A stretch of DNA of 63,883 bases, counting the filler, from Dugesia japonica (taxonomy: Eukaryota): NCBI GenBank assembly GCA_001938525.1. It is 5 parts of 5 records of this genome, joined end to end, with 100 filler letters (N's around TTAATTAATTAA, not from the genome) between each part and the next. Parts side by side here need not be neighbours in the genome. Positions count along the whole stretch, not along the records: positions 55,689 to 63,883 come from MQRL01620420.1; 4 more parts are not named here. One strand, written 5' to 3'. Positions within the stretch are counted from its first letter, which is position 1. Every line of letters starts with the position of its first letter. The notes beneath the pieces are model-generated. The model did not search any database and was not told where the DNA came from. It worked only from the letters and a program-made list of their open reading frames with translations. A program made the translations under genes and the position numbers. Below, in pieces: positions 8,254 through 63,883 of the stretch.

Positions 8254-8268
8254 TATTATTATTATTAA

Positions 8269-8317
<49 letters not shown>

Positions 8318-8325
8318 TTTATTAT
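8254..8325. repeat. (TAT)n microsatellite
   Basis: Direct run of tat repeats next to an N gap. Confidence 0.9.
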
Positions 8326-8494
8326 TTCAACTAGAGATTACACATTAATAATTTAATTTCAATTTATTAACTTTAAATGGTGAAAATTATTGAAAAACAA
8401 ATGAAAATCCATTTTAATAATTTTATCAAAATTATTATCCTTTATTTTCTATTTCCATTTAAAACAATTGTTTAATTATTGGAATAACAATTAG

Positions 8495-8780
8495 TATTGT
8501 GTTTTGAAAAGCGAGTTAAAACTTTTGTGTGGTTGGTGATCGTTTTCTTGAAATCTTTTTTGAAAAAGATTTAAATTGAAATGAAAAATTCAATGACGAA
8601 TAAGTAATTGTTTTAAATTTTGAAATTAAATTTTAATAAATAAATTGAAAATTTATTTGAAAATCTGCATAAAAAATCAAACGACTTTAAATCGATTTTA
8701 AAAGATTTTAAGAAACTATCACCAATTTAAAACAGGAATTTAATTTGTTTAAAAACACAGGTGTTGTTATAGTTTTTATT
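8495..8780 (+). mobile_element. Solo LTR-like fold-back element related to the Gypsy LTR at 43958
   Basis: agcgagttaaaacttttgtgtggttggtgatcgttttcttgaaat...aaagatttaaattgaaatgaaaaatt closely matches 43974-44055; 8499-8560 is an imperfect inverted repeat of 8700-8759; ends approximate. Confidence 0.7.
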
Positions 8781-12589: not shown

Positions 12590-14299
12590 GGGTTCTAGGA
12601 CAATTTCCCCCTAGACAATATCCCCCGGAAAATTATTTAATTATATTATTTCTTTTCAATTCCAAGTAATAATTATTTCAAATAATTATTTATGATATTA
12701 AAACCGAAAAAAATGTTTTTAAGCAAATTTTATTAAGCTAAATGAGTCTTGGACAATTTCTGGCAGACGAAATAATTAAAATTTTGAGGAAAGTGAAACA
12801 TTTTTTTCTTTTCAATTCCAAGTAATAATTTTTTTAAATAATTATTCATGATATTAAAACCGAAAAAAAATTTTTTTAATATTTTAAATATAAAAAATAT
12901 TAAAATATTACTTTATAAAAATATATCAAATAATTATTCATGATATTAAAACCGGATGAATTAATTAGTAAAGTAAAATATTTTAAATATTATACATTAG
13001 AATAGAACTTTCTAAAAATTGAAAAAAAATTTTACTGAAAAAGTTATTTGTTTTTTTCAGTATTAAATTATTATATTTTTAATAAAAGAAAAGGAAGCAT
13101 GCAAAATTCTATTTAAAACCCTAAATTATGGGCAATGCCACGTAAATAATCCAATTTGTTACGANTTTCAACGTCTTGTACAATAGTGAGGATTCGAGCC
13201 TTTAGATCTGAATAAGTCTTTCTTCTAGGTTAAGGTGCGTGGCCAGCAATAGCTTGTGTCAAGTGTACTTGTTGCAAAGCTTGTTCACGTTTGATGCAGT
13301 CGAGGAAACTCCAAAAATTAGGAAGATTACAACCAATATTTGACTGGAAACTTCTGTGCCATCTTTTAACAGGGTTGTTTGTTCTTGGAAGCTCATCTTG
13401 TGATCGTTGGTAGATGTTACAAAGATCAATTTCAAAGATAGGTGGACTACGACAGAAGTGGACAGCCGGAAGTTTATTAGACAACTCTTCAAATACAGCC
13501 ACCACATCTGGTGGAGGAACGAACGCTAGGGCTGCAATCATCTTCATTTTCCGTGAAAAGTCGCCATCTTCTTGATATCGTTGTTCTAGGCCGTGTTCCT
13601 AGCTCTTTCTATATACATTTTGGCTGAAGTGGAAGAAGCATCCCTTGACTACAGTGTTCGGTAGAACTTGATGTATACTTGAGATCATAGCCTGCTTGAA
13701 ATCAACCATTATTGATATTGGATTTAAGTTGCCATTAATTGCCATCAACTGCTGAATTAATTTTCTGTATGTAACTCCAGTTTTGTTTGGTAGAAGACCA
13801 AACAAACACACATGGAATTGTGCGCTCGCTGACGAGTACATGTGTTGTATACAGTTGGAAGAAAATTGAAGGTGATGTTTCAAGAAACCAGTGTGAAGAA
13901 CGTTATAAAAGATCCATATTGTTTTGTGTTCCAAAAATTAACATTCTGGTTGCCGTTGAACCGGAATAAAACAAAAGAAAATCTTGACCATCGCTTGTTA
14001 TTTTGTATTCATCTGGTAAAAAAAGTTTTTACGGTTTTAATATCATAAATAATTATTTAAAATAATTATTACTTGGAATTGAAAAGAAAAAGAATTTTCA
14101 CTTTCCTCAAAGTTTTAATTATTTCGTCAGCCGGAAATTGTCCAAGACTCATTTAGCTTAATAAAATTTGCTTAAAAACATTTTATGGGTTTAAATCTCA
14201 CAAAAAATTATTTTTTCCTCGGCAAATTGTCCGGGGGGATATTGTCCTGGGGGATGTGTTCCGGGGGGAATTGTCCAGGGGGATATTGTCCTGATACCC
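12590..14299 (-). mobile_element. MULE (Phantom-like) DNA transposon nested in the Gypsy integrase
   Basis: TIRs GGGTTCTAGGACAATTTCCCCC / rc GGGTATCAGGACAATATCCCCC with internal GGACAATATCCCCC repeats; long subterminal inverted repeats (~12650-12860 vs ~14030-14185); flanking CTTTGG duplication; transposase fragments LLPNKT, VDFKQA, GCFFHFSQ, ALAFVP, PRTNN. Confidence 0.9.
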
Positions 14300-17200
14300 C
14301 TTTGGTATATTGTCTACCTTCTCCAACTCTAGTTGTCCAGGAGGAAATAGCCTTTCTACCTGTCCATTCGTATTGTAATGATAAGGACTAGGGCAACATA
14401 GTTTAATATTCATCTCATCTGCAAATTTCTTCATTTTTTGTGATTCAAATACCTTTCCACAATCTGTATGAATATATCTCGGAGCTCCTACCTTTAATAT
14501 CCAGTAATCTTTCAATACAGGAGTTATTGACTCTTCATCTTGTTTTGATGTTGCTTTTAATGATATATATTTACTATTCTGGTCAATAATAGCCACGATA
14601 TATTTCTTTTTATGGAACGTTTCTGTCCATGGTCCTGCTATACCAATATATATTCGCTTAAACGGCCTCGCCGGCTCGGATTTCATACTTTCTTCTTTAG
14701 TTTTAGTTGTTACAACCTTCACTCGCTGACATGCTTTGCATCTTTCCACGATTTTTTTACACTTCCCCACAACCTAGTCATGTCATAATGTTCTCTAATA
14801 TATTTGGTAACTTTTTTTATTCCTGTGTGTTCTAGCAACTGATGCATTTCTCTGATCATATCCGATTTTCTAAAACATCTTTCCGTTTTGTGTTAATATC
14901 TGAGCGTATATCTATTGGAATCACTCTTCCTTACCATTTTGATCTGTTCTCGTATTATTCGTATCTCTTTGCCATTTCTATGTCTCCGTTATTGTATTCA
15001 AACGTCTCGTTTTTAATTTGCCTCCTATAAGATTTTCGTGTGACATCATGCATTGTTCACAAGTGCCACATGTCTGCCTTGAGAGAAAATCCGCATTGCC
15101 ATGTTTGTCAACTTTCCGATACAGTAAATCAATGTCTAATCCACTTAGGTAATTGATCCAATTTTGAAACTGTGCCGTTATAGGTTTCTTTGTAGTTAAC
15201 ATAAACGTAATCGCCTTATGATCTGTTCGTAGAGTGAATTTTCGCCCATATAAGTAGTGACTGAAATGGTTGGAAAAATAGAATATCACCAGCAACTCCC
15301 TTCTTGTTATACAATACCCCAATTCGTGATTATTCATTGCGTGTGGTTCATACGCTATCACCCTTTCTTGTTCATTGTTGTCAATTTTTATTGTAGTATG
15401 AATTCTCTCATTACATCTGGAAACACTAAAATTGGTGACTTTGTCAATGCTTCTTTCATATCTCTGAATGAATGTTCGCAGCTCTTTGTCCATATTAACT
15501 TATTATTATTTATACTGCACTGTTTTTCTAGTTCTCCAGCCTTCTTTGCGTAATCCTTTATGAATCTTCTGTAAAAGCAACAAACTTCCAAAAAACTTCT
15601 CAATCCTTTTACTCATTTAGGCCTTTTGTATGTCTATATTGCCACCAATTTTGCTGGGTCGGTCTGAACTCCTTTGTCACTTATGATGTGCACAAAAAAT
15701 TTGATCTCTTTTCTTAGCAATTGACATTTTGACGTGCTTAAACGTAGTCTTGCTTGATGTACTTTACTAAATAATTCATTTAGTGTTTTATAATGCTCTT
15801 CCAAGTTTTCTGAATATATTAGAATATCGTCTAAATACACCGTTGTTCCTTTTGTTGTACCTAAAACCTTTGTCATGAGTTACTGTAATGTCCCAGGCGC
15901 TGCAGCTATGCCAAACGGNATGCTATTGACACAGTAATGACCTGACTTTGTTGAAAAGGCTGTTTTATCTTTTGAATCCTCTTCTAGCTCTACTTAATAG
16001 TAAGCATTACCTAAATCTAATGAGCCGTAGAAATTTGACCGGCCTAACCTATTCAGAATCTCTTCTACATTTGGCATTGGAAATTCTTGTCTTTCCGTAA
16101 TAGCGTTCAGCTGTCGAAAATCCAGACAGAGACAAATATCTTTTTTTCTTTTTTCCAGATACATATTAACTGAGTGTTCTATGTTGAATTGCACTTTCGT
16201 ATAATTCCATTTTCAAAAAGATTACGTACACCTTCGTTTATCTTATTCTCAAGGTTCATAGTTGTCCTCTATGGCTTAACATTTATAGGTCCTCCTTTTT
16301 TACTATTTTATGCTTTACCAGTTTTGTGCATCCTTTGTGCCATTTGTCTGCCATAAAGATATTTGAATGTTTTCTTATCAACTCCATGATTGTGCCATTT
16401 TCCAATGTATTTATCTCATTTATAGCTTTTTGACATCTTTCTTCATCTGTAATAATCCTTCCAAAATGCGGCTCGATATTACAAATCCGATCTTGATTAT
16501 CTCTTTCTGCTGTATCTATCCAATGTAGTTCTAATCCAAAACTGGTCTGCAACTCAATGCCACTAATTATGCTAGGGATTACCTTTTTCACAACTATGAA
16601 ATTAATTCATCTAGTCGAATTCCCGATCCTCATTTCCACCTCAAATATTCCTTTGGTGCTTAATGAACTATCGTTAGCGCACCGTAGTCTGTCCTTGGTT
16701 GTTAATAACGAGACATCCTTGATTTTGGTTAACACATTCAAACCCATCACATTAATTCTTGCTCCAGTATCCAGTAGGTATTCAAACTCCATATTTTGGA
16801 TCTTTATCGCAATACTCGGTCTACATCTACCCTACATCATATCGTATCTAACCACACCTTTTCCCTAATCTTTCACTGTTGCGATTGTTGGTTCCACTGA
16901 TGTTTCTCCCTTGATTGCTGATATCTCTTTCTTTAAAAAAATAATAAACTCGTTCTTTGACATCATCTTCTATATTATTAGTATGACTAATTTTACTATA
17001 ACTATCGATATTTTAGGTATCACCCATTAGATTTTGAGTTCTTCAGCTCCTACCATCTTCCTTGTTGCGGAGCTGCTCCGTTTGGGTTTCTCCTTGATTC
17101 ATATACGTTTGCGTCATATCTGTCGTCCCCATATCCATTGTTACTTGTCTCATTATTTTCCACTGCATTGATGTTAACATGTCTACCCTGATATATGGGA

Positions 17201-25135: not shown

Positions 25136-28100
25136 ACTGGATAACTTATTTGAGAAGGATAAGTCGGATTTAACCTCGAGCTCTCTATTTGAGATCTGTT
25201 ATGACACGTTGCAGAAGACATACTGTGAATAGAATTGGGCATTGCACTAGATGAAGACGGTCCCAGAGACTTATTAATATAGCTAATTGAATCGGATAAG
25301 TTATTATTTCCTGTTTGAAGAACATTTCTATTTAGAGGCAATAAGTTTGATGGTAATTGTGAATTTATTGGTCTTTGTTGATTAAATGGACTGGGAGCTT
25401 GATTAATATAATTATTTCCATGGGGCAATGTGGAATGATATTGAGAGTGATTTCCAGGTCCAATCTGAGACGTATTGGGGAGATTTGGTCGACTTGTTGA
25501 CTGAACATTTGGAGGAGGAGGTGGCGGTGGTGGCATTCCACCATAATTTGATTTCCAATCCATTCTCCGAGAATGTTCTTGTATACTTCCAACTAAATGA
25601 ATTATATTGATTTTATTATTGATGAAATAAATATAAATTAAACCAAATTGATAAATGTAATTTTCTATTTTTATACAAAACAGACATGCAGAATAAAAAA
25701 CAAACAGGTGGTAACATTAACATAACGACATTCAAAAGTGCGATTGATGCTCTACTAAACTTACTAGAATAATACGGTGAAGTGGAATGTGAGCTGACAC
25801 TATTTGTCACATGATGGGCATTATTCATATTAGAAGAATGAGAGACAGCACCACTGGGAGGATAAATATAATTAGGATTTGGTGGATAATATGATGAAAA
25901 TGAAAGTGAACTAGGAGCAGCTTGGCGAAATGTTGAACTATATTGTCTAGAGTAAGTGAAGCATGGGTACTGCATTGGTGGATAAAACTGACTAGTATTA
26001 GTTGCCAGATTTTTATAATCACATGAAATTTCTTGCCCAGAATATTCTATATAAGGATTATTGTAGTAGGTTGCGGAGTCAGATTTAGAAACCATTTCGA
26101 CTTTATCAATATCTTTATCTGTGAAATTTTCCAAATGTTTATTATTGCTTTCAGAATTTGTATAGCGTGCCACATTAGGTTCCAATTTGGAAACATCTTT
26201 TGAATTGATGTCAAAATTATCACCAACTATTTAATTTAGAAATGTTTACATTTAATTTCAGTAACTAATTAAAAATAAACTTAAGTAATTATAAAACTCA
26301 CCTGGTTGTGATTGCTGAGATATATTAGAGATGCTATTTGTCGGAGTACCTGGAGACATTGGCATTTGCATGGGATGTGTTGAGTTAGAACTAGAACTAG
26401 AACCAGGACTGGACCACTGCTGTTGATTCAGAACCATTGATTTATTCCAATTTGGTGGGATATTAGCATCATACCTTGCATGAGGATGCATTGGATTAAC
26501 TGGGGAATTAAAACCCATCATTCTGGGACCAGTATATGGTCCGGGATACGGATTATGGCCTCTTTGAGAAGGATAGTGTATAGGACTTCTATGCATCATA
26601 GAACCATTGTGAATAACATTGTTATAAGGATTATGACCATGAAATGGATGTGGAGTATTAAAATCAGGATGTGGAATAGTTGGTCGAGGAGTTGAGGAAG
26701 TACTTCCATATTCAGAATTATGCTGGGAAGTTTGACCAGATGATATTGTGGAAGAAGGTGATGATCCTGCATTTCTAGAAGTACTTTTCTTCTTTTTATC
26801 TGACAAACTTTGAATTTCTTGCAGAATAGGTCCAGGATCCGCACTATTACGATCAAATTTGCATTCATAATCCAAAAGACACTTAATATAATTTCTTCTT
26901 AAAGTATACGCCCCGGAAGCTGAAGCATTTACATTTACTATCAAACAAATTTCTTTCCATCTTTTTGTTTTTACCACATTTAATAATCCTCCACGTTCAC
27001 GAACTGCGTGATATAAACGAAAAAGATCTAAGGGTTGTTTCACAACTGTTGGTACAGCACTTAACGGAGTATTATTTTCCTGCATAAATCGTAAATATCT
27101 TTCAATCCACGGCCCTCTTTCTGGTTCATTACCAAGTTCCATTAATTTTTGATAGCAACTATTATTAGTTTGAGATTCATTATGGTGATATTGGCGATTA
27201 GGTATCATGTTTGGATTAGGAGTAAAGGGTCTTTGTTGTGGAGGCAGATGACTGGGGAATGAACTTATCATAGTTTGTGGAACTTGGCTATTTGGATACG
27301 GTTGAGGATAAATCATTGAATGATTTTGTGACATTGGAGGTGTTATTTGATGTTGACTAAATTGAGACTGATTTGAAATAGATGGATGGTGAAGTAAATT
27401 GGTCTCATTGGGACCTAGACTGCTGACACTATCTTCATTTTCATCAACCATTGAACTCATACTTGTCTGTGAAGGTGAAGGAACGGTATTGCTTACAGGT
27501 GTTGCAGGATGACTTTCGTTCTGGAATAAAAAGTTTTTAGTTTGGAGATAAGTTTACTAAAAATATATTAATTAATGATTAAGCATTTCAATTCCAATAG
27601 AATTTTATTATTAATTTAATAATTATATTTGAAATGAAAACATTTTGATCAGATTTTAGACAGTCATACTAACTTTTTCTTTATTTGATATATATATATA
27701 TCAACCATTCTTTTTTAGTTACATTTTATCTGCTATTAAAAAATGTTTCCTCATTCAAAGTGAATAATTTTATATGATGGTGTTAAAAATTAAAATTAAT
27801 TATATTTTAAATAATTTTCATTTAAGCATTGATTCTAGTTTTTAAAAAAAATAAGAACGTAGATAAAAAATGGTCCTTAAATTTTTTATAACAATCTTCG
27901 TCAGAATAGACTTTATTGTCCATATTTTGAAAAAATAACTATAAAGGAAAAAATTTAAAGAATATTTTGATCTACCCTTTAATGTTATTTAATTTCATGA
28001 CAGCAAATTAATCATGTTTATTGTTTCTTAATCAGAATCGCATAGTTAATGTGAATTTTGTTATCTAAATCTAAACTAAAATGAATGAAATTAAGGAAAT

Positions 28101-33075: not shown

Positions 33076-34229
33076 TTATTTCTCGACATGTAAATTATTA
33101 TTTGTATCACTGGAAGATTGTCTAAATTCATAGGAATGAAGTGATAATGTATTCAACCACAACAACATTGATTTTTCTTCTTTTTCGATTTGAAAGATGT
33201 GTGAATAGACAAATTCCTGTCGAAATTTCTCTATTTGACTTTTATAAAAATCCCAACTAATAGGTTTTCTTCCACCTTCGACCGCATATTTCTCATTATA
33301 GGAGTCATAATTAACCCTGTCTAGAATTAATCCAAGACCCGGAGCTCGGGGCAAGTCTATCTAGAAATGAAATTAATTCAGTCAAATTATAGATTGTTAA
33401 TAACCTTTTGTAATTGAAAAACTCTTTCAAATACAGTGTCATCACAAAATCCCCTCACTACTGCCATGGTCAAAGCGATCATTTTTCTAATTTGATGAAG
33501 CATAAATGATTGCCCATTTATAACAATAGAAACATATTCAATATTTTCTTCTACACAAGCAGGTTCACAAGTTAAACTCATTAAATAACGTCGACAACTA
33601 GAATCTGTTGGAAGACGGCCAGAAGTAAAATTGTGAAAATTATGGGTACCCAAATAAAAAGACAAGACTCTATTCACTTTATTAAATGTATCAACATCAA
33701 TGCGAAAATTATGTAATTCATCTTCAGATATATTTCTTGGGGAGAAAGCAAAACTTGGAGTTAAATATCTATATGTTCGATATTTAACCATACCCTTAGC
33801 ATGAAAACTTTTAGTAGTTTGAAAAACATCTAATATCCTAATTTGCGCGGGTAATTTACTATTTAAAATATCATGTACGTTATCGAATTTCGATAATTTA
33901 ATTGAACAGACTTGCCCAAGAGCTGACACGCTTTTATCAGTTTTTGAAGCCCGTTGGAATTTCAATTTCATGGGTTGCTTAAAATTTTCTTCGTCTATCA
34001 ACTCAGCCTCTAACATTGCTTGCAAAATGTCACCTTCAATGGTTCTAAATCCTTCATTTCGTTGCATTCCAAAGTAACCAACACCAGAATACATCATCAT
34101 TATAGCACACGTCTTTTTACGTTGAATAGAAATTTGTTTAACTTTCTTAGTATCATCTAGCACTAAATCTGAAGCTCTTCTTTTTAAAATATGAGAATTC
34201 TCTAATTTATCATCTATGATTTCGGGCAT
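33076..34229 (-). CDS. PUS1: tRNA pseudouridine synthase Pus1 (TruA family), 2 exons (34229-33405, 33360-33076)
   Basis: YSGVGYFGMQRN, FQRASKTDKSVSA (catalytic Asp), GTHNFHNFT, GQSFMLHQIRKM, PRAPGLGL motifs; 44-nt GT-AG intron 33361-33404. Confidence 0.95.
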
Positions 34230-44751: not shown

Positions 44752-45176
44752 GATCCACTAACTATATTTGAAAAATTAACATTATTAATTTCAGTGAAAG
44801 CTGGTCATAATAATTTACACAAAGAAATTAAATCTGTCTGTAAAGAATTATTAGATCAAGAATTAATTACCAAAGAAAAATATAATGTTTATAAAAATAA
44901 ATATTTTAGTTAAAGAAAGTGTCTCATCAATTTTTAGTTGTTGGACAAGAATCTACGTTACAAGTAGATTTAAGATTTCTAATAGAATTAGATTCGGATT
45001 ATGAAATGAGATTATTATGTTTTAGTTGTTATAATATAATTTTTAATGTTATTAGTAATAATAATACTTTTATACTCCTAAAAGTCATGAGCTGAAGCGA
45101 ATAGAAACAAGAACAAAAATCCATTGAACCAGGTGCTTATTATATTAAAGAAATATCTAGTACATTAAAAGTTTAA
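44752..45176 (+). pseudogene. Remnants of Polinton-like KAGH-motif gene end and penton 5' part
   Basis: DPLTIFEKLTLLISVKAGHNNL..LITKEKY aligns with the C-terminus of ORF 57199; (V)SHQFLVVGQE...IEPGAYYIKEI aligns with penton 58122 (MSHQFLIYGQE...LTPGAYEIKQI), in the same gene order. Confidence 0.85.
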
Positions 45177-45179
45177 ACT

Positions 45180-47850
45180 TCATTTTAATTTTTGTTTTAA
45201 TTTATCCAATCTTAAATCCCATTGTTTAAAAATTTTACAATAAAATTTATTTTCATGTGGCCAAGTTCTTACACCGTTATCTTCAATTAATCTTTTATCT
45301 TCGTAACCAGTTAAAGCTATTTTTTGTTAAATTAATTCAACTTCGTGTTTATGGGATTTTAAACTATGATTAATTCCATAAATTATTTCTTTTGGATTAT
45401 TTAAAACTTTATCATATTCTTTCATTCTTATTTTATTAATTTTTGAAACTCCTTTGTCTTTAGTTTCTAAATTTTTGTTATAATCACCTCCGGTTTGAGC
45501 TAAATCATTCTCAATTAAATAAAGTTTTGTTTTTATAAAATTACATTTAGTTATTTCTGAATTTTGATTCTCATCGTTTATTTGAAATAATTCATTACCA
45601 AGTAAACTTTCAAATTTAGTCAAATTTTCTTGTCCAATTATTTCTTCAAAAACAGAGTCAGTGTCTGAGAAATGAATTTTGTATTTATTTTGTATTTTAT
45701 TTTCTAATTGATTATATATAAAGTCATAAATTACTTCTTTTGCATATTCCAAAATAGTAAAACCTATATATGGGAATTTATTATATTTTAAATTAGTTTT
45801 TCTCATATGCATAGCAGCTGATTCAGCTTCTACAGTTTCTTTATAACTAAATATTTTGCTAGATCTAAAATTAATTTTTGAAGCAAAGGTTTGATAATCT
45901 TTATCAGTGTCAACTATTTCTACATTATATCTATTTCTTATGTTTTCTAAAGATGTACCATAAATGTAATCTACAAAGACATCATTATTTCTTTATACTT
46001 CTCTTCTTAATTCTACAAGTTTGTGAACATAATCTTTAAACTATGGTGTTGTTCGCATTTTATATTTAGAATATTATTTTTTTATTTTCATTCCTAAAGA
46101 TTTGTATAAATCTAGTGTTGAACCAAGAATAATGTAATTTTCTTTATCAAATTGATTCAATGTTATTTTAATACTTTTCTTGCTCAAATTCCTGTTAAAT
46201 GATAATTGAAAAGGAGCTAACATTACTTCAGTTATATTAATTCTATCTCGAGCTAGAGGAAAGCATTTTGTCTTTTCATGAATTTCTGGAGGATATTCTA
46301 AATCAACTTTATAAATATAATTTCTTTTAATTGTTGATTGAGTTTAAGTTAAGTCTTTAGATTCATAGATTTCACCTATTGGTAAAGGCTTAGTCATACA
46401 AGATGCATACAAAACTATTTTCATCTAGATATTTAATAAATGTATCGTCAAAATAATCAGGTGGAATTTCCTCATTTGAATTCATCATTTTTATTTAATC
46501 ATCAAATTGAGCTTTATTTATTTGTTTAGTATATGGATTTTTATTATTGTTTTGGTTAAATACTTTTCTCTCACCACATACACCTGAAAACACACTTCTA
46601 ATTCCTTTTTCTATTTTTAAGAAAATATCATAAGTTTCTTTTTTTTGCAAATTTTAAATTTACATTTGCGCAATTCATACACGTAATCCAACTATATCCT
46701 GAAGCCGAATATAAATAACATGGATCTAATTGAAGAATATTATTTTAAAATTTATCTCTAAAGTTTTCAATAAAATCTGCTAAAATAATTATATCTAATT
46801 TCATGTTATGTAACATATATTCAAATAAATTAAAATTATTTCCACCTTCGGCTTGAGCTCCGCAAAAACCTTGTAAAAATTCACTATTCTTGTTCATTTA
46901 TCTTTTGTTGCTTTAATTTATTGAAAAAATTTCTTTTGTTTGAATATCATTTGATTTTAATAATTGAATTACTTCTTTTATATTTTTTTCTTTTACATAT
47001 CCATAAGGAAATAATATTTTCTTTGGTTTTAAATTAAAAGATTTCAAATGATTATATTTTTTAGATTGATTTAATAATTTACTCATTGTTTTGATCGATG
47101 CAAAATGACATAAGTTTGCTGAATCTAAAAATCTTATATTTTTATATTGAACTGAAATGTAAATTTCATCTGTATGAGGAATTATTTTTTTAACTTTACT
47201 TGAAAGTTTTGCTAATAATTCTTTAAAAAAAATATTATCATATCCAGATCCATTGTGAAAGTAAAATGGAATAAATAAATACTTTAATGATTTATCTTGT
47301 AAATTGAATTTAGAATGAGTATAACCTCTAAATTCTCCATTAAAATGATACTGATCAATTACTGGATTTTCAGTTGAGATTATATTTTTAACACCATATC
47401 TACATTTAGTTTCTTGTGTAAATTTTGGATGCTCAGTTTCAGTATAAAATTCAATTAATTTTTTTTCTTTTATATCTTTTAATTTATTATTAATCTCTTC
47501 TAATAATTCAAAGAATTGTTCATAAAGGTTTTCTCCATAAAATTCTTTGTATTTAGTTTCCATTAAATGTGGATATTTACTCACTACATAAATTCCAAGA
47601 GATCAATTGCATCTTCTCCAGGAAGTTGGTCAAATAATGATTTGTTAATCATTTCTTTGTTTCTTTGAATTTTAATGAGATTTTGCATAATCTTGCCTTG
47701 TAAATTTTAATTTACAAATTTTACAATACAAAGGCATTTATGTGGATTTCCACAAATTGCTGAATTCAAATGTTCTTATAATCCAACTTCAGAACGAAAT
47801 GATACAAAACATTTCGGACATCTAAATCTTCTTGAAGTTGGAATGATATG
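45180..47850 (-). pseudogene. Decayed protein-primed family B DNA polymerase of a Polinton/adintovirus-like element
   Basis: FHNGSGYD, RFLDS, FPYGY, MKLDIIILADFIENFR, YIGFTILE, SDTDS, KGVSK motifs; many stops and frameshifts; homologous to 61543-63883. Confidence 0.9.
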
Positions 47851-54220: not shown

Positions 54221-55688
54221 ATGAAAGATGAGAAATGTTTTTTTCAAAAATTATTTATTTGTGAAAAATATTCTCCATCGAATTCTACATCGATTGATGT
54301 AAAAATCTCGAAAAACAATTTTTTCAAAGATTTTCAAAATTTCAGATGTTTTTCTGGATTCCCATAAAAATTTATTTAAACAAAAATGACTTAATTTCAC
54401 TAATTTACCACAAAAATTTAATAGAATTTTAAAAAACTTGAAAATTTAAACAAATTTGACTTGTTTCATCAATTTACGTAAACATGCAGCCCAAACTAAC
54501 CAATCCCGAGGAAAGATTTGACCAAACTGCCTTAACCTAGTAAATAATTGACTCCAAAAGATTACCCAAATTTTCCAATACCCAGGGAAAATTAAACGTA
54601 ATTCACCGGAAACAACCAAAAATCAACCTTATTCGATCTTGTTAACTTGTCCGCGGACATAAGTTAAAAAATTTGCATAAGATTTATCAAATATATTATT
54701 TAAAGTTTGAATAAATTTTAATGAAATTTATAATAAACATATTGAACACAGTCTATATTTTATTGAATTTCCATGACTAAATAAAATCAATGTATGAATT
54801 ATTAAACTTTGTATATTTATTGAATTTTCTATATATTCTTAATTTGAATTTTCTGTCTTAATTAAATTTGTATGTATTTATACTTTTAACGAAAAAGATA
54901 ATTTTTCGTGTCACTATATTCACCTAGCGCAATGGTGGGCAACTAGTGTGTCGAAAATTTGAATAATAAAAGAAACAAAACAAAATTTTGATCGAAGTTT
55001 ATATTTTAATGAAGACATAATGAATCTCAAACTAAATTTATAGCAATAGACTGAAATAAAATTAAGAAATAAATAATATTAAATGAGCTCGAAGGTATAA
55101 TTCAATTTAATATAAAATAATTCAATTTTAGGTTCTGGAAGCAAAAAACAAACATTTGTTAAATAGTAAGAGATGGGACAAAATGGATTTTACTCTTAAT
55201 ACAAGATGATACAATTTCAAAGAAGTAAATTAACGACAAAATTTTCATTAAATGTAATTAATTTTAAAGTGAAATTAAATATACTCCAAACTAAATCATA
55301 ATTTTAAACAGACATTGTAAATAAATTTTTGATTAATCGAAGAAATCGTAATTACTGATTACAAGTAAATTAGATATTACTTGACGGTAGAAATGTGATG
55401 AGTATAAATATTTAAAAATAAAAAGTGGAATCGTATTATCAAATAAAAAAACATTTGACAGGTTATAACTACATCATAATGAACTGTATCAATTTTCTGA
55501 TCGAGAATTCTCTAATGACACTTGACAGTGGGTTTCACTTCAACATTTATAAAATTCATATTAATACAATCAGAAAACAATTCATATCNNNNNNNNNNNN
55601 NNNNNNNNNNNNNNNNNNNNNNNNNNNNNNNNTTAATTAATTAANNNNNNNNNNNNNNNNNNNNNNNNNNNNNNNNNNNNNNNNNNNN

Positions 55689-56450
55689 CAATTTAGATGT
55701 TTAATTATTGGATCAAGTGGATGTGGGAAAAATGTTTTACTATTAAAGATTTTACTAACACCTAATTTTATAGATTATAATAATTTGATAATCTTTTCAA
55801 CTACTATTAATCAATTTGAAATTCAATTATTATATCATGGATTAAATCAAGGTTTAAGTAAACAAGATTTAATGAATATTTTTTCAGATGAAATACAAGA
55901 TAGAATTCCTCAAGATTTAAATCCACAAGAAATAATCTTTTGGTACTGCAACTCCTTGCATTCCAGTTTACTGGGTTCTAGTGGATTAAGTAAATCAGAT
56001 AATCAACAGGAAACTGAACAGATAAACATTACACTATCTTCTAAAGCATCTGAAATTGTACCATGTGACAAGTTACCTGCTAATAAAAAGAATTNNNNNN
56101 NNNNNNNNNNNNNNNNNNNNNNNNNNNNNNNNNNNNNNNNNNNNAATGAAAAGAACCAATCAATACAGAAATCTTACTTTACTAGAGGAAGACATAATAA
56201 TTGTAATGTAATTTACATTTCACAAACTTATTATGATTTAGACAAGAATTCAATAAGAAATAATAGTAATTGTTTTATCTTCTTTAAACTAGGTAAAAGA
56301 GATAAAGATAATGTTTATCATGATTTATTTAGTAATATTTTTAATAGTAAAGAAGAATATGATTTCGAAACCAATCACCATTGGAAAACTAAATATAATT
56401 ATTTTTATCTTTACAAGGAAAAAGAAATGTTGGTAGATAATTTGTTTTAA
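55689..56450 (+). CDS. A32/FtsK-like DNA packaging ATPase (5' truncated)
   Basis: FRCLIIGSSGCGKN (Walker A, starting upstream of the ORF-track start), FTRGRHNNCNVIYISQTY, IRNNSN; Walker B falls in the N gap. Confidence 0.92.
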   Translation, partial: QFRCLIIGSSGCGKNVLLLKILLTPNFIDYNNLIIFSTTINQFEIQLLYHGLNQGLSKQDLMNIFSDEIQDRIPQDLNPQEIIFWYCNSLHSSLLGSSGLSKSDNQQETEQINITLSSKASEIVPCDKLPANKKNXXXXXXXXXXXXXXXXXNEKNQSIQKSYFTRGRHNNCNVIYISQTYYDLDKNSIRNNSNCFIFFKLGKRDKDNVYHDLFSNIFNSKEEYDFETNHHWKTKYNYFYLYKEKEMLVDNLF

Positions 56451-56567
56451 TAACCCGAGCGAAGCGAGGGTTTGTAATCTAAATCTTAAAGTTAAAAATC
56501 TTAATGCTAAATTATGTTAAAGCTAAATTATTATATATAAAAATAGAAACCTCGCTACGCTCGGTTA
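56451..56567. promoter_or_regulatory. Intergenic cassette: inverted GC-rich repeats enclosing a TATA-like element
   Basis: TAACCCGAGCGAAGCGAGGGTTT (56451-56473) and AAACCTCGCTACGCTCGGTTA (56547-56567) are inverted copies; TATATATAAAA at 56532; function inferred. Confidence 0.55.
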
Positions 56568-56569
56568 CA

Positions 56570-57193
56570 ATGCAAAGCAGTACAACTGAACAAGAATTAA
56601 TAGATTTAATAAATAGTGATAAATGTAAATCAATTAGAATTGATGGTAAAAACTATTGGATTGGTAAAAAGACTAAAGAAATATTAAAACAAAAGCACGC
56701 ATCTGGAGTTAAAACGACAGCTGGAGGAATTTTTCCATTATTAGCTTTAATACCTGGTATTTTGGCAGGAATTGGAGCTGCAGGAGGCGCAGCCGCTGGC
56801 ATTGCAAAGGTTGTTTCCAATTCAAGAGAAGCTAGTAATAAAGTTAAAGAATCTATTGAACTTGATAAAAAGAATGAATTATTAACTGAACAAATAAACC
56901 AGTTGAAAAGTAAACAATCTCAATCAACTGTTGAACCAGTTAGTTCTAATAAAGTTGATCCAGTTAACTTGAACAATAAAGTTGAGAATAAACTTCCACA
57001 GTCACAGTCTACAACTGGACAAGGAATTTATTTAAATCCTTATCAAGGATCAGCTATTCATAAATATTTAAAACCATACTTGATTAACTCTAAAGTAATT
57101 AAGAAAAAGAAATTTAAAAAAGGAATTGAAATTATACCTAGTGGCAAAGGAATATATTTGAATCCATATCATGAGAGTCCAAATAAAGCTTAA
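56570..57193 (+). CDS. Putative virion core/membrane-active protein (adenovirus pX-like) with adenain-type sites
   Basis: AGGIFPLLALIPGILAGIGAAGGAAAGIA resembles the adenoviral pX GG-FLP hydrophobic segment; two GxGIYLNPY repeats; start taken at ATG 56570, after the intergenic cassette. Confidence 0.6.
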   Translation: MQSSTTEQELIDLINSDKCKSIRIDGKNYWIGKKTKEILKQKHASGVKTTAGGIFPLLALIPGILAGIGAAGGAAAGIAKVVSNSREASNKVKESIELDKKNELLTEQINQLKSKQSQSTVEPVSSNKVDPVNLNNKVENKLPQSQSTTGQGIYLNPYQGSAIHKYLKPYLINSKVIKKKKFKKGIEIIPSGKGIYLNPYHESPNKA

Positions 57194-57198
57194 ATAAA

Positions 57199-58104
57199 AT
57201 GAATGATTGGATTGAAGATAGAATAAAAAGTTTAAAAGAACAAATTAAAGGAAGAGAGAAATATGACAAGTTAATAGTTGACCAGCTAGCTGGACAAGTT
57301 TCTTTTCCAGTTAACTGGACTAACCAGTTTTCAACTGGACAGTTTTCATCCACAGTCCAACCAGTTGGAAACAATAATTTATCAAGTGGTTTAACTGTTA
57401 AAGATAGTCCAGTAAACCTGGAACCTGTTCAGTTAACTATTAAAGAACTAGAACCAGTTGAAAGAATAACAAGTGATGTATTTAAAATAAAAAAAGAAGA
57501 ATTAAAAGTTAGTAATAAATATGAATTACCTCCAACTTTAATTCCTTATATTATTTATGACTATGATAATACTTTTGATTCTTTTAAAATTGGTTCAGAT
57601 ATTATTTATTTAAAACAAAGAAAAGAAGAAGGAGAATTAAAGAAATTTTTTCTTATAAATGGAACAAAAGAAATAGATTTTAATCAAGAAGTATTAAATT
57701 TAATGTTTGGTTATGGTTCGAATGATAATGAAGCTAAAAGAATTTATTTAAGTGGTTTTAATTTTAAAATTCCACATACAAGTAAATATATTCAAGCATG
57801 TAAGAAAAGAGGAATATTTGATGAAGAATTTAAAAAATTAAAAAATCCACCTGATTATAAAGAAGTTGATTCTATTAAAACTATTCCAACTAGTAGTGGA
57901 GAAGGTATTCCAACTAGTGGACAGTCTACTGGATACAAGAATCCAATTAAACTATTGGAAAAGTTTGTAATAGTTACTAGTGCAATAAAAGCTGGACATG
58001 ATAATCTGTCAAATGATTTTAATAAAATAATTAACAAGATGTTGGATAATAAATTAATAACTAAAACAAAATATGATAGACTAAAAGTTAAATACTTAAA
58101 ATAG
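57199..58104 (+). CDS. Conserved Polinton-like protein of unknown function (C-terminal KAGH helical motif)
   Basis: Intact 301-aa ORF; C-terminus is homologous to the remnant at 44752-44913 and precedes penton in both elements. Confidence 0.7.
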   Translation: MNDWIEDRIKSLKEQIKGREKYDKLIVDQLAGQVSFPVNWTNQFSTGQFSSTVQPVGNNNLSSGLTVKDSPVNLEPVQLTIKELEPVERITSDVFKIKKEELKVSNKYELPPTLIPYIIYDYDNTFDSFKIGSDIIYLKQRKEEGELKKFFLINGTKEIDFNQEVLNLMFGYGSNDNEAKRIYLSGFNFKIPHTSKYIQACKKRGIFDEEFKKLKNPPDYKEVDSIKTIPTSSGEGIPTSGQSTGYKNPIKLLEKFVIVTSAIKAGHDNLSNDFNKIINKMLDNKLITKTKYDRLKVKYLK

Positions 58105-58121
58105 CTACGCTACGCTCGGTT

Positions 58122-58896
58122 ATGTCTCATCAATTTTTAATATATGGTCAGGAACATGAATTAGAAACTAATTTATCTAGAGGAATAGAATTACAAGGTG
58201 AATGGGAAATTGCTTTAATCTGGTTTACTACATCCAACATGGTATTGAATATAAATAATAAAAATAATAAATATAAAATTAATGGTATTGACAAGATACT
58301 AACTCCAGGTGCATATGAAATTAAACAAATTGCAGAAAAGTTAAAACAAGATGCTCAGTCTGGAACTGGTTTATTATTAACATTTGATGTATCAACAGGT
58401 AAAGCATTATTATCTTTAGATGTAGGAGATAAAGATAAAAATTCTAATGTTAAAGAACTAAAGGTTGAGTTTGATAAATTTTCTTTTTTTCATACTATAC
58501 TTGGATTTAATGTTTTACCTGGAGGTTATTTGGTTAAGGAGGGCAATAGTTTCATTTCAGACAATAAAATTAATATTATTGACATAAATACAATTAATAT
58601 TATTTGTAACATTGTACAAGGTAATTATTTAAATAANNNNNNNNNNNNNNNNNNNNNNNNNNNNNNNNNNNNNNNNNNNNNNNNNNAAAGAATACAATTT
58701 ACTACATAGTTTACCAATGGGAACAGTTCCTTATGGATATAGGATAACTGACAGACCTGCTAATCCAATTTATTCTCAAATTAATACAAACTTTATAACT
58801 AGAATAAAATTAAATATAGTAGATGAGAATTTTAATACAATAGATTTTGATGGGGAAAAAATAAATATCCTATTACATTTGAGAAAGGTTGACTAG
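58122..58896 (+). CDS. Minor capsid protein (penton)
   Basis: GEWEIAL, PGAYEI, NIICNIVQGNY; after the N gap continues KEYNLLHS..VPYGYRITDRPANPIY..VDENFNTIDFDGEKINILLHLRKVD*; the frame break is confined to the N gap. Confidence 0.88.
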
Positions 58897-58916
58897 TCAA
58901 ATTAATACAAATTAAA

Positions 58917-59432
58917 ATGGAATATCCAACACATTGGAACATATTAGATTTTTTAAAAACATTTGGCATATCATCTACAACTAATTATGATTTATTAGAT
59001 ATTGCTAAATTTTTAAATCTTGATATTTATGTAGTAATGAAGGATGAGTTTCCAACTAGATGGAGTCCACAGCCAACTGCCAACTGTCCAACCCAGTTAA
59101 CTGGAAGTTGTCCAGCCCAACTAGTTGGAAGCTGGATAATAAATTATCAAAATTCAAATCAAAAAGGTAGTCATTGGGTTGCCTATGTACAAATGGCTCC
59201 AAGTGGAGCTTGGAAAACTAGTTATTATTTTGATTCTTATGGTTTACCTCCATTAGATTCAATTTCTAATCCAGTTAAATGGAACAGGACACAAGTACAA
59301 CCTTGGAAAACTAAAATATGTGGTATATTATGTATTTAGTTTATTTATAAAATCCAGCTAGCTGGAGTTAATGGAGGGAATTTTGATTTAATAATTAAAG
59401 AAATGAAGGAGACCTTCAAAGATTGGCTTTAA
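58917..59432 (+). CDS. Adenain-type cysteine protease with one in-frame TAG (59337-59339)
   Basis: IINYQ..GSHWVAY (His), YYFDSYG (Asp), QVQ..CG (Gln/Cys); frame continues FIYKIQLAG...DWL* to 59432. Confidence 0.9.
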
Positions 59433-59448
59433 GTTATGTATATAAGAA

Positions 59449-60690
59449 ATGACTCACAGCTTTTCAAATGTAATAATGAATAGGTTTGGGGAAACATTGG
59501 ACAATAAAAATACTAACCAATTACTAGAAGCATTTGATGGTAAAGTTGAAAGTAAAACTAATTTAAAATTAAGAATCCATGAACATGAGGAACAAGTTAG
59601 AAATAAAAAGTATGATGATAGAGAATATATTGATAAAAAGGTTGATCAACTAGTTGGAAAGTTAACTAAGCAGTTTATTGCTCAAATTGTCAAACAACAA
59701 GTTACTATAGAAACTTTAATGGAAAGTAATAAAATACAGTTGAGTGGTAGGAAAAAAGAATTTATTAATCTAAAAAGTGAAATGTTACTTCAACTTGAAA
59801 ACTTTAAACAAATTAAAAATTTTTATAGAGATGAATTTAATAACCAACATGATAAATTAAAAAACCAACTAGTTGCACAGTTAACTAGACAAATTAAAGA
59901 TTTAACAAGTAAATGTAGTGAAGAAAAATGCAACAACTTGAAAAAACGAGTTGATAGATTAAAAGAAGAATTTGATTATTATCTTCAATATAAAAATGAT
60001 CCTTTATATGAATTGGAAAAAACATTTTCTTCATTAAACCAGTTGTATAAAAAAGATAGAGAATATCTTGAAGACATTTTAAAGAAATTAAAGAAAGAAA
60101 GAAGTCAAAAGAAAATTTATTCTCCTGATTTATTCAAAACCTTTAAAGAAGAAGTAGAAAATTATTTTCCATATTTCTTAGATCCAAAAGTATCTTCATT
60201 AGAAGTAAATAAGAATGTAATATTTTATTTAACAGCAGAAAAAGAAAATGAAGAACTACCAAGTGTTGTAATTTTTAAAATGAAAAAATTAAAAGGATTT
60301 AGAGATGGGGAAGTAGTAAATAAAGGAGATGGGAAAATTTATTTTGTACTAGAGAAAATGATGGTATTAAATTTTGAATTATTAAAAGAAGAAAATGAAT
60401 TATATTTCCTTTTTAAAATTGGTAGTGAAATACATGTTTATGAACCACATCTAACCTTTAAGTTTAATAATGAAATTTTAATAAAAAATGAATCTAGTCC
60501 AGTAGTTTTTAAAAACTTTAAATTTAAAACTAATATATCACCTAAAATACTAAATATTTTCAAGATAAATACTAGAGAAATAGATGAGGGAAAATCAAAA
60601 TGGTTTAAATTTTCAATAACCATTGGTCCTGAAACTCTTTTAAATTCTTTAACTATATCAACTAAAAACTTTAGTGATGGGGTTAAATAG
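59449..60690 (+). CDS. Hypothetical 413-aa protein, coiled-coil N-half and beta-rich-looking C-half
   Basis: Intact ORF with tight spacing inside the viral cluster; no recognised motif. Confidence 0.7.
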   Translation: MTHSFSNVIMNRFGETLDNKNTNQLLEAFDGKVESKTNLKLRIHEHEEQVRNKKYDDREYIDKKVDQLVGKLTKQFIAQIVKQQVTIETLMESNKIQLSGRKKEFINLKSEMLLQLENFKQIKNFYRDEFNNQHDKLKNQLVAQLTRQIKDLTSKCSEEKCNNLKKRVDRLKEEFDYYLQYKNDPLYELEKTFSSLNQLYKKDREYLEDILKKLKKERSQKKIYSPDLFKTFKEEVENYFPYFLDPKVSSLEVNKNVIFYLTAEKENEELPSVVIFKMKKLKGFRDGEVVNKGDGKIYFVLEKMMVLNFELLKEENELYFLFKIGSEIHVYEPHLTFKFNNEILIKNESSPVVFKNFKFKTNISPKILNIFKINTREIDEGKSKWFKFSITIGPETLLNSLTISTKNFSDGVK

Positions 60691-60702
60691 ATTTAATAAA
60701 AA

Positions 60703-61461
60703 ATGAATGACCAATTAATTAGAAATCAACAAGTTGAAAAACTGTATCCCGATTTAAATAGTGATTTTAATGATAATTCAGATTTAAGTGAAAAGTCTGT
60801 TACTTGTTCCACCATTCAAGATTTGAAAAATAAATTAAACAAAACAAGAATTAAAGATTTTGAAAGTGATCTTGAATGGATAGAAGATAAACTAAAACAT
60901 TATAAAAAGTTAAAGAAAAGGTGGTCAAGATTTGATAATGGAGTTAGATTTACGGATGTTGGAATATCAACTGTAGTAGGTATAGCTTCAGGAACAATAA
61001 TATTAATGTCCACTTTATCTTTTACAATACCTTTAATAGTTACAGGAATAGTAACAGGAATACCAATTATATATTCTATTGCACATGGATCTTTAAGAAT
61101 TAGTTTAATAAAAAGTAGAATGATTAAATATTCTAATAAAATTAAATTATTAGAAGAAACTAAAAATAAATTATTCCTTTTTTATATTAAAGCATTGGAA
61201 GATGATGAATTAAGTAATGAGGAAATTAAAATTTCAAAAGATATAATTAGTAATGTAAAGACTCAGTTAGTTAGTATGTCCAGCAAGCTGGATGGTAGTA
61301 AGCAGTTACCCAGCAAGTTGGATGGTTCAGTTAACAGTAACCAGTTGACTGAACAGTTGTCCAACCAGTTGGCCAGTCAACTGGATCAATTTGCAAAATC
61401 ATTTCCAATCTTGATGAACCAGATTTCCAACCAGTTAACTGGCCAACAAGCCAAAAAATAA
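60703..61461 (+). CDS. Putative membrane protein (coiled coil, two hydrophobic segments, N-terminal LYPDL)
   Basis: Hydrophobic stretch VGISTVVGIASGTIILMSTLSFTIPLIVTGIVTGIPIIYSIA between charged helices; palindrome-derived C-terminal tail. Confidence 0.7.
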   Translation: MNDQLIRNQQVEKLYPDLNSDFNDNSDLSEKSVTCSTIQDLKNKLNKTRIKDFESDLEWIEDKLKHYKKLKKRWSRFDNGVRFTDVGISTVVGIASGTIILMSTLSFTIPLIVTGIVTGIPIIYSIAHGSLRISLIKSRMIKYSNKIKLLEETKNKLFLFYIKALEDDELSNEEIKISKDIISNVKTQLVSMSSKLDGSKQLPSKLDGSVNSNQLTEQLSNQLASQLDQFAKSFPILMNQISNQLTGQQAKK

Positions 61462-61542
61462 ATTTTATAAAAATGAACTAGGTAAAAAAAAAATATTCAT
61501 CAACAAGGACAACCCCCTTGAACCAAATCTTTTCTATAAGAA

Positions 61543-63883
61543 ATGAATATTGGTTCCAAGAATATGTTTTCTAATATGCTTGAATTGTTTTGTGAAATCT
61601 GTAATCAAACGTTTAAGTCAGACTATCATTTACAAACTCATCTCAAAGGAAAAGCCCATTTAAGGAAAGTAGAATTAACTAATGCAGGTGATGTTTGGAG
61701 AAGATGTCATACATGTAACATAAACTTTGATAATTTAGTTAATTACAATAGACATATTAATGGACGTAAACATATTGAAAAGGTTGGTCAATTAGAAGAT
61801 AATCAAAATGATGAAGAAGAAGTTGAAGAAGAATTTCCAGTTAACTGGAATATCAAAGATTTATTTAGACAATATATTAAACCTAGAGGAGAATATCAAG
61901 TAGAAACATGTCAACAATCCATGATTAAATTGAAACAAGATTTCCTAGTTTATAGAAATGAAGAACAACCAGCTATAGAAAATATACATCAATTCAATTA
62001 TAGAATTAATTTTAATCTTTTAAAAGAATATTCTTCAGACATGAAAGAAATGGTTAATATATTTATTAACAAATTTCAAAAGGTAGCAGTTTCAATAACA
62101 TGTTCTACTGCATACACAAAAGACTTTGTTGGACAAGATAGTACAACTAATCAAAGATGGATAAAGGATTATGATGCACATTCAGAGAAAATAACAATGA
62201 CTACTCAAATTAATGATACGATTGACAAAATGTTGAATCAACTTTCGGAAGATATTTTCACAACAGAGACTCAAGGATCAGGTTGGTCATTTGAAAAGTT
62301 TAATTCTTTTACAATTGAACTATCAAATTATGAATCTCTAGTTGGCCAGCTAGCTGGACAAGGTTATTTTCCATTACCTAGTGTATGGAAAAATATTCGT
62401 GGAATTCTAAATATCAAGAATCCAGAAGGAGATTTCAACTGTTTTAAATATTGTATAATGGCTCATCTTGATCCTTCTCTCAATGATTTAGTTATAAATT
62501 ATCAATTTCAATCAAATCCAACTACTTTGAATCTAAATTGGAAAGGAATAACAATGCCAATGGAAATAAAAAATATAGCCAAGTTTGAAAGATTAAATGA
62601 TTTTCAAGTTAATATCTTTGAGGTAATTCCAAATAAAACTAGACCAACAATTCAAAAACTCTATTCATCTCACATTGAAACTAATCCCCATCACACAGTT
62701 AGGAAATGTAATTTACTATTTTTAAATAAACACTCAGGAGGTCACTACATTTTAATTAGGAATCTTAACAAGATTAATAAAAAATCTAATCACACTAATG
62801 AATTGTGTATAAACTGTATGAATTGGAAATCGAATAAAGAAGCTTTAATTAATCACCAATTACTTTGTTTAAAACAGAAAGAAGCAGTTATTAAATTTTC
62901 TTTTAATGATTCATATTCTTTTAATAAATTTTACATGAAAAACAAGAATCCTTTTACAATCTACTTTGATATAGAAACCTATAAACGAAAATCTAATGAG
63001 GAATCTAACGAGGAATCTAACAATGAATTAATTCCATTCGCTTTAGGATTATATCTAGTAAGTGAACATCCATTAGTTGAAAATATTTATCAATCTTTCA
63101 CAGGACCTAAATGCATTGAAAAGTTTATTGATTGGCTATTAAAATTTAATGAGTTATTTGAAAGATTAATTAATAAAAGATATCAATCTTTTCCACTAAG
63201 TGATCGAGATCTTGAGCTAGCGTCCAACGAAAAGTGTTATTATTGTGAGTCGAATACACCACAGTGTGACTCACTTTCAATAAATCCATGGACAGGAGCT
63301 AGTAGAAAATCATCTACTTATGCACATGAAAATTGTATCAAGAAATTTGAGAATCCAAAGAATTATTTCATTCCAGTTTATGCACATAATGCTTCTAAAT
63401 TTGACAATCATTTTGTTTTTAAGGAATTATGTAAATCTCATCCTGATAAAATAAATAATCTAATTCCATTAAATGATGATGTTTACATTTCATTTTCTTT
63501 AGAAAGATTAAGATTTCTAGATTCTTTAAGAATGTGTAGTGGTCATTCAGTTGAAAAGTTGGGTCAGGATTTATTAAAAAGTAAAAATCATCTTCATTTG
63601 GATAAATTAAATCTCAAACCATCAATAGGAATCTATCCATATGATTATGTAAGTGGAAAAAATTATTCTGAAGTTAAAAAGAAATTATTAAACTTTACTC
63701 CAAATATTAAAGACTTTTTCAATTATTACGACAATCTGAATTATCTGAATCTGATTATCAAACATTTCTAAAAGAATATTCAAATTTCCCCAACTTATTA
63801 GATTATACTCTACATTACATGAAACTTGATGTAATAATTCTAGCAGACTTTTTCGAGAACTTTAGGACTTTATCACTAGATAG
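61543..63883 (+). CDS. polB: Protein-primed family B DNA polymerase with two N-terminal C2H2 zinc fingers (frameshift at ~63727; runs off the window)
   Basis: CEIC..H..H and CHTC..H..H fingers; QGSGW, LNIKN..CFKYC, YFDIET (ExoI), AHNASKFD (ExoII), RFLDS, YPYDY; shifted frame continues YMKLDVIILADFFENFR (ExoIII). Confidence 0.95.

Follow-up and report, generated by a model that had tools for sequence, protein, structure and literature searches.

Frame bias of short DNA words that are iterated through genes is already known from bacteria. The origin of HIP1 and other highly iterated palindromes of cyanobacteria is argued between mutational drive and selection (PMC5861425, PMC4390886); HIP1 is an invariant 8-mer that is tied to a methyltransferase and spread through whole bacterial genomes, and the available text of these papers reports no stop frame for it. 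DNA uptake sequences (DUS/USS) are also DNA-level words in genes, but they are non-palindromic, are selected through bacterial uptake and arise in place, with one-mismatch sites forming the pool for perfect ones (PMC2817400). For the palindromes that lie in coding regions of Nematomorpha mitochondrial DNA, which reach 284 bp and share no common word, template switching has been proposed (PMC6649704, which also cites the Rickettsia palindromic elements, larger mobile units). The VANC target motifs of Arabidopsis VANDAL transposons are mainly non-coding and non-palindromic and form same-orientation arrays with a proven binding protein (PMC5735166). Finally, Mavericks/Polintons/adintoviruses are compact, intronless elements that carry a protein-primed DNA polymerase B (polB), a packaging ATPase, a penton and an adenain-type protease; purifying selection on the core genes is documented for fish Mavericks (PMC8502044, PMC8097293), and ACT and AGT are given as Maverick end triplets (PMC8097293).

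The window analysed here, i.e., the whole stretch of 63,883 nucleotides of Dugesia japonica DNA, contains at 55689-63883 a partly decayed Maverick/Polinton (adintovirus-type) copy, a compact array of plus-strand ORFs that resembles described Mavericks in the four genes named above and in its intronless layout. Unlike them, it carries a 12-bp palindromic word, scored here as CCARYTARYTGG; the string "palindrom" occurs 0 times in the available text of PMC8502044 and PMC8097293, and the stem CCARY-NN-RYTGG is found in none of 10 related viral contigs. Depending on the frame, the word reads P-V-N-W, reads Q-L or places a TAA or TAG codon at its centre (the stop frame). Like HIP1, it is a short palindrome that is over-represented beyond codon effects, runs through coding DNA in several frames and has enriched near-matches; unlike HIP1, it has three co-varying forms, clusters at indels, is absent in perfect form from the stop frame (0/8, with only centre variants there) and belongs to a eukaryotic virus-like element, none of whose observed genes encodes a methyltransferase. 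It shares with DUS/USS a coding-driven frame bias and a pool of one-mismatch sites, but several of its copies lie at length changes. As in the Nematomorpha palindromes, the copies lie inside protein genes, are phase-biased by protein selection and have complementary arms; at 12-16 bp and of one word, they differ both from these and from the larger Rickettsia elements. With the VANC motifs the word has in common that it is short, specific to one family and multiplied through tandem repeats in a mobile element, whereas its own setting is coding. Given these differences, we class the word with none of the four systems. A literature search at the level of titles and abstract starts, with supplements, Repbase and paywalled papers outside its scope, returned no report of the word or of internal Maverick palindromes; a family-specific palindrome in a Maverick is real and apparently undescribed.

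Products of the element's ORFs match ORFs on the polB-bearing IMG/VR contigs L051, L055 and L059 (packaging ATPase, penton and adenain-type protease), and its protein-primed DNA polymerase B has eight homologs at 26-29% identity, one with PF03175 (10 viral loci); these matches identify the element as a Maverick/Polinton of the adintovirus type. The names packaging ATPase, penton and adenain-type protease are based on sequence motifs; a Pfam scan gave no domain match for the three ORFs concerned. The element and its genes, with copies of the 12-bp word where they are mentioned, are:

55689..63883, plus strand: partial Maverick/Polinton copy; cut off on the left by an N gap and extending past the window on the right
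55689..56450, plus strand: packaging ATPase gene; 5' end missing, 50 N inside; tblastn and alignment to L051, L055, L057 and L059
58122..58896, plus strand: penton (minor capsid) gene; 50 N inside; terminal TAG within TTGACTAGTCAA (58889-58900)
58917..59432, plus strand: adenain-type protease; premature stop at 59337-59339; copies at 59052, 59093, 59117, 59271 and 59354
60703..61461, plus strand: 252-aa ORF of no named family; hydrophobic middle; of the five stop-frame copies, four lie in its low-complexity tail
61543..63771, plus strand: gene for the protein-primed DNA polymerase B; ORF interrupted close to the end; word perfect at 61837 and 62346

Decay is marked by the premature protease stop and by the break in the polB ORF at 63771. 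CpG is depleted in the element (0.23) relative to the flank (0.82). The polB N-terminus carries C2H2 (zf-met) zinc fingers, with a zf-met domain at residues 15-39, and the Pfam scan found no DNA methyltransferase among the ORFs of this incomplete element. For the 252-aa ORF, no homologs were found among 1,676 candidates of 138-441 aa, and its matches in the Atlas were unnamed only (best score 0.91, low recognition); single-protein patterns, used in viral contigs to find relatives, returned 22 stretches, none of which was confirmed. In public DNA runs, approximately 8,000-9,000 contigs per run map to the element at 80% likeness, and the element family is likely abundant in the host genome. One RNA run gave 0 reads on 61235-61470 and is uninformative on expression.

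Several other observations concern the assembly and its surroundings. The gap at 55589-55688 is written N-TTAATTAATTAA-N, apparently a scaffolding marker, and the 50-N runs within genes seem, from the ATPase alignment, to be longer than the sequence that they replace, so that reading frames across gaps are undefined. GC-rich words occur at the gene junctions 56454-56470, 56550-56565 and 58104-58119 (GAGCGAAGCGAG at 56457; CGCTACGCTC at 56553 and 58108); they are near-complementary to each other and CpG-rich inside a CpG-poor element. The DNA word GCGAAGC forms a very stable mini-hairpin. A second, divergent Maverick family is present in the window as decayed fragments at 44752-45170 (plus strand) and approximately 46970-47602 (minus strand), with 35-40% identity to two element ORFs and 33% for polB. 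In the host flank, 14198-15493, 26258-27460 and 33387-34229 (all minus strand) hold LTR-retrotransposon RNase H and integrase fragments, an ARID-domain ORF and a tRNA pseudouridine synthase ORF.

The palindrome family is far beyond chance. Scoring for CCARYTARYTGG identified 8 perfect copies and 20 copies with at most one mismatch in the element, compared to 0 and 3 in the flank (1-55588), and the stem CCARY-NN-RYTGG occurs 15 times in 8,095 element bases and is absent from 54,494 flank bases and from the 3,149 bases of the second Maverick family. The arms are complementary in 13 of these 15 stems, as GT/AC, AC/GT and GC/GC forms (permutation P=2e-5), and in all 8 perfect matches; complementary 5-bp stems with a 2-nt centre occur 13 times, whereas each other centre length from 0 to 10 nt occurs at most once. 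Spacings between words peak at 12 and 24 bp, and one word dominates the enriched palindromes of the element. All 20 copies with at most one mismatch are in coding segments, the element termini being outside the window. As DNA, the 12-mer folds weakly (-0.9 to -1.2 kcal/mol with a 4-bp stem; -4.9 at best with flanks). The copies are not independent, and all P values given for them are hence optimistic.

As a null, synonymous codons were shuffled in blocks of 40 codons, so that the protein and the local codon usage stayed the same. Against this null, 13 complementary stems were observed where 1.8 were expected; by frame, the counts were 2 vs 0.62 for P-V-N-W (P=0.06), 7 vs 1.0 for Q-L and 4 vs 0.15 for the stop frame (both P=3e-4). 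The word is therefore a DNA-level feature, stop frame included, and the initial annotation was right to propose that it arises at the DNA level in all frames. CpG deamination was considered as a source and rejected: it could give CCA/TGG ends but leaves the co-variation of the arms unexplained, and two related contigs with lower CpG (0.14 and 0.17) are without the stem. The word may resemble Myb, E-box and Grainyhead/CP2 sites, but these resemblances, which some of its variants fit and others do not, were not retained.

Palindromic words were also seen elsewhere. A double-motif pattern had 0 matches in viral contigs and 49 loci in metagenomes, none of them matching element proteins at E 1e-4. 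Five unrelated metagenome contigs (L005, L009, L038, L044 and L045; GC 43-47%) hold dispersed CCAGC-NN-GCTGG, mostly outside long ORFs, an independent family of nearly the same word; its centres are not TA in 7/9 (L005), 5/8 (L038) and 0/8 (L044) cases, and this mostly free variation means that no coding filter is needed for centres to vary. The related Maverick-like contig L051 has an enriched palindrome of its own, TAGGCCTA (7 vs 0.12 expected), and L056 has GC-rich palindromes; iterated words may thus recur in other Mavericks. The ACTAGT-centred variant at 57886-57921, 59117, 59646 and 59865 is what results when the Maverick end triplets ACT and AGT are joined, a match that may be chance.

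The 20 copies with at most one mismatch divide by frame into 5 (P-V-N-W), 10 (Q-L) and 5 (stop frame), and the perfect copies into 2, 6 and 0. All eight perfect copies thus lie in the two open frames, as had been reported from the sequence initially, and the three third-frame copies reported with them all exist, with the words and coordinates that had been given; two further ones, at 61361 and 61373, had been missed. The stop-frame copies, to which no strand is assigned, are:

55963..55974: stop-frame copy CCAGTTTACTGG, altered at centre position 7; doubtful as to its original frame
61280..61291: stop-frame copy CCAGCAAGCTGG; reads S-K-L in the ORF at 60703-61461
61310..61321: stop-frame copy CCAGCAAGTTGG; reads S-K-L; arms non-complementary; duplicate of the copy at 61280 at a 30-bp offset
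61361..61384: two abutting stop-frame copies, at 61361 (CCAACCAGTTGG) and 61373 (CCAGTCAACTGG); overlap a Q-L array of 12-bp period

At most one mismatch being allowed, centre positions 6-8 are altered in 5/5 stop-frame copies and 1/15 open-frame copies (Fisher P=4e-4); with two mismatches allowed, the counts are 5/5 and 5/24 (P=0.002). The proposed tabulation of frame against mismatch position therefore does recover an association, but a stop-frame copy in an open ORF must differ at positions 6-8, so that the test cannot fail, and we rejected the association as evidence because it is circular. All five stop-frame copies do lack the stop, as claimed for three of them; this is ordinary and expected from open genes, and one open-frame centre is altered as well. 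By contrast with the altered copies, none of the 14 copies with an intact core lies in the stop frame (P=0.003 under equal and independent frames, although the copies are not independent) and none of the 14 ends an ORF early, which indicates that the word accumulated while the ORFs were kept open. The perfect Q-L-frame copy at 59354 lies just past the premature stop of the protease. To this extent the proposed filtering under selection stands; its dating to the active virus is unsupported, the named copies being lineage-private in the three DNA runs compared. The companion claim, that this did not happen during decay, agrees with the lack of the stem in the flank and in the second Maverick family in the window, which argues against a decay process imposed by the host.

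Of the centre variants, 5 of 6 at one mismatch (binomial P=0.018) and 5 of 10 at two (P=0.21) fall in the stop frame, and the word of the copy at 61361 is also found in an open frame, at 57357. The five stop-frame copies represent about three events; those at 61280 and 61310, with 16/17 bases identical at the 30-bp offset, count as one event. The ATPase codons at 55938-55973 have G or C in 8 of 12 third positions (GC3), compared to 16.5% for the element (P=1e-4) and 3/12 in the neighbouring frame; the original frame of the copy at 55963 is therefore doubtful, and its composition suggests that this stretch may once have been read in a different frame. The palindrome TTGACTAGTCAA, which had been put forward as a relative that supplies the penton stop codon, does hold the TAG but has only ACTAGT in common with the family. 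Extension of one of the other seven ACTAGT sites to 12 bp has a chance probability of approximately 0.17, and the stop coincides with the end of two homologous pentons, a natural gene end; we thus did not retain this palindrome as evidence.

Short contigs from three public DNA runs were aligned to 61235-61470. One identical public contig covers 61235-61402, and the stretch is therefore no assembly error. However, 61275-61346, which includes the copies at 61280 and 61310, is covered by a single identical contig in one of the three runs (depth 6.8), compared to depths of 60-106 to the left of 61275 and of up to 650-1,150 at 61387-61410; these two copies are real but private or hypervariable among sisters. 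At 61373, 6 of 24 sister records, among the matches listed, have a match that starts at 61377-61378, and depth increases from 30-37 at 61363-61370 to 381-543 at 61379-61386. The CA centre and right arm of this copy are therefore shared and its left arm is not, which suggests, for this one site and among the matches listed, that the left arm is newer and that the centre was no stop in those relatives. This is at odds with the initial view that perfect copies arrived and then had their centres mutated; a perfect stop-frame copy would, in addition, truncate the protein and be removed rather than repaired. Across 30 bins of the element, half-site density did not track sister-copy depth (Spearman 0.03, P=0.88); the idea that motif-rich bins are the most variable among sisters is unsupported at 258-bp resolution.

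Outside the protease and polB, the open-frame copies, again with no strand assigned, are located as follows:

56960..56971: one-mismatch copy in the open P-V-N frame; in the ORF at 56504-57193
57275..57368: cluster in the ORF at 57199-58104; the word is perfect at 57282 and 57307 and has an altered centre, in an open frame, at 57357
59646..59888: in the ORF at 59449-60690; two copies with one mismatch (59646, 59865), a weaker copy following each at 12 bp
61431..61442: perfect copy in an open frame; altered in sister contigs at positions 7 and 8 of the centre and in the arms

A 35-bp stretch at 57275-57309 is 91% identical to 62339-62373 in polB, in unrelated genes 5 kb apart, and extends into the conserved polB motif Y-F-P-L-P; a possible source of this match is ectopic copying inside the element. 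At 62346, polB is four residues longer than five of the eight homologs that cover the site and two residues longer than the other three; the extra 12 bases fit either an inserted palindrome or a tandem duplication with the palindrome as junction, and the homologs, approximately 26% identical, are too distant to date the insertion. In the protease, 24 bp separate the copies at 59093 and 59117, which lie in a length-variable loop that is 18 residues longer than in all five viral-contig homologs and the longest of 19 aligned, although the length of this loop varies in other homologs too.

In our judgement there is about an even chance that a lineage-specific CCARY-TA-RYTGG word was built piecemeal, through template switching together with short duplications that kept the reading frame, and that its stop-frame copies stalled one base short. 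Strand-displacement copying by the protein-primed polymerase would expose single strands, on which the nascent end could switch template and rewrite one arm as the complement of the other; rewriting of this kind would give the co-varying GT/AC, AC/GT and GC/GC forms. Duplications of 12, 24 and 30 bp would raise the number of copies where loops and tails tolerate them, and copies may spread between genes through microhomology, as the 35-bp match of two unrelated ORFs would suggest. Purifying selection would remove frameshifting lengths as well as any in-frame TAR, and stop-frame copies would persist only with CA, AA or TT centres. Many of these probably began as Q/K-L codons that were already there and acquired a complementary left arm; completing the word in the stop frame would create a stop, which is likely why they stalled one base short. 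If built piecemeal, the word need have no function. Enrichment, complementarity of the arms, the 12-bp geometry, the presence in all three frames in excess of the protein-preserving null, the lack of an intact core in the stop frame and the placement at in-frame length changes of polB and the protease are direct observations. Piecemeal building has weak points: template switching is not sequence-specific, yet one word dominates, and the choice of word is left unexplained; TA is kept in 8 of 9 complementary open-frame stems, though it is unpaired in a hairpin; the hairpin is weak; and the direction of change comes from one site and short contigs.

Constancy of the word is what would be expected if it were a selected site for a dimeric, probably element-encoded protein, for which the C2H2 fingers of polB are a candidate; it would then be a putative replication, packaging or anti-silencing mark, with stop-frame copies as the best sites that coding allows. 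We hold this tentatively and consider it unlikely. A single fixed word and geometry, the TA centre, a T/A preference at flanking positions 0 and 13 (27/40), specificity to the element family and the zf-met domain of polB all agree with it, as do precedents in VANC motifs, multiplied via tandem repeats (PMC5735166), and HIP1, kept in all frames (PMC5861425), although the VANC precedent is non-coding. A degenerate symmetric site should, however, accept mixed arms, which none of the 8 full matches and only 2 of the 15 stems have; furthermore, variable loops and tails are where the copies concentrate, and no sister contigs cover the two named ones. The literal form of the initial model, according to which perfect 12-mers were inserted as mini mobile palindromes and those in the stop frame were rescued by centre mutation, would account for the exact four-residue gain at 62346, for the near-identical 35-bp stretch in two unrelated genes and for the five of six one-mismatch centre variants in the stop frame. 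It is nevertheless decidedly improbable, given that a stop inside a needed gene would be eliminated before a rescuing mutation, that the five copies are about three events with the excess gone at two mismatches, that sister contigs have the centre and right arm of 61373 in common, and that the polB gain is equally a 12-bp tandem duplication; no pair of an empty and a filled site was seen in the sequences compared.

The copies could also be by-products of a Q-L-x-x protein repeat and common P/G/W codons, the stop-frame copies being out-of-phase readings. The overlap of 61361 and 61373 with the Q-L array fits this, some half-sites coincide with conserved protein motifs (K-A-G-H at 57990, shared with the second Maverick family), and the P-V-N-W frame does not reach significance against the local null; but the Q-L and stop frames both exceed the protein-preserving null, which largely refutes a by-product, and CAG is used in 15 of 26 Q-L pairs compared to 31 of 114 Gln codons overall. 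We therefore regard this origin as very unlikely, and even more improbable is one after integration, through a host mutational process during decay: the copy is indeed decayed, with its premature protease stop and broken polB ORF, and the named copies are private among sister contigs of the three DNA runs, but no stem occurs in 54.5 kb of flank or 3.1 kb of the second decayed Maverick family, and no ORF is broken by any of the 14 intact-core copies.

The part of this finding that is worth keeping is the palindrome family and not the missing stops, as the family reshapes loops of the polymerase and the protease. The co-variation of its arms is a record either of errors that the little-studied Maverick polymerase makes in copying or of a binding code, and copy number in the host genome is likely sufficient to separate mutational drive from selection, an issue still argued for HIP1. 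It is possible, though on balance unlikely, that this Maverick lineage carries a signature like that of HIP1 or uptake sequences, i.e., a putative protein-recognised 12-bp palindrome (possibly bound by the polymerase zinc fingers) that is driven through coding DNA, with stop-frame sites one base short. If so, gain of the word would be traceable site by site, and drive and selection would become testable against each other in an animal DNA virus.
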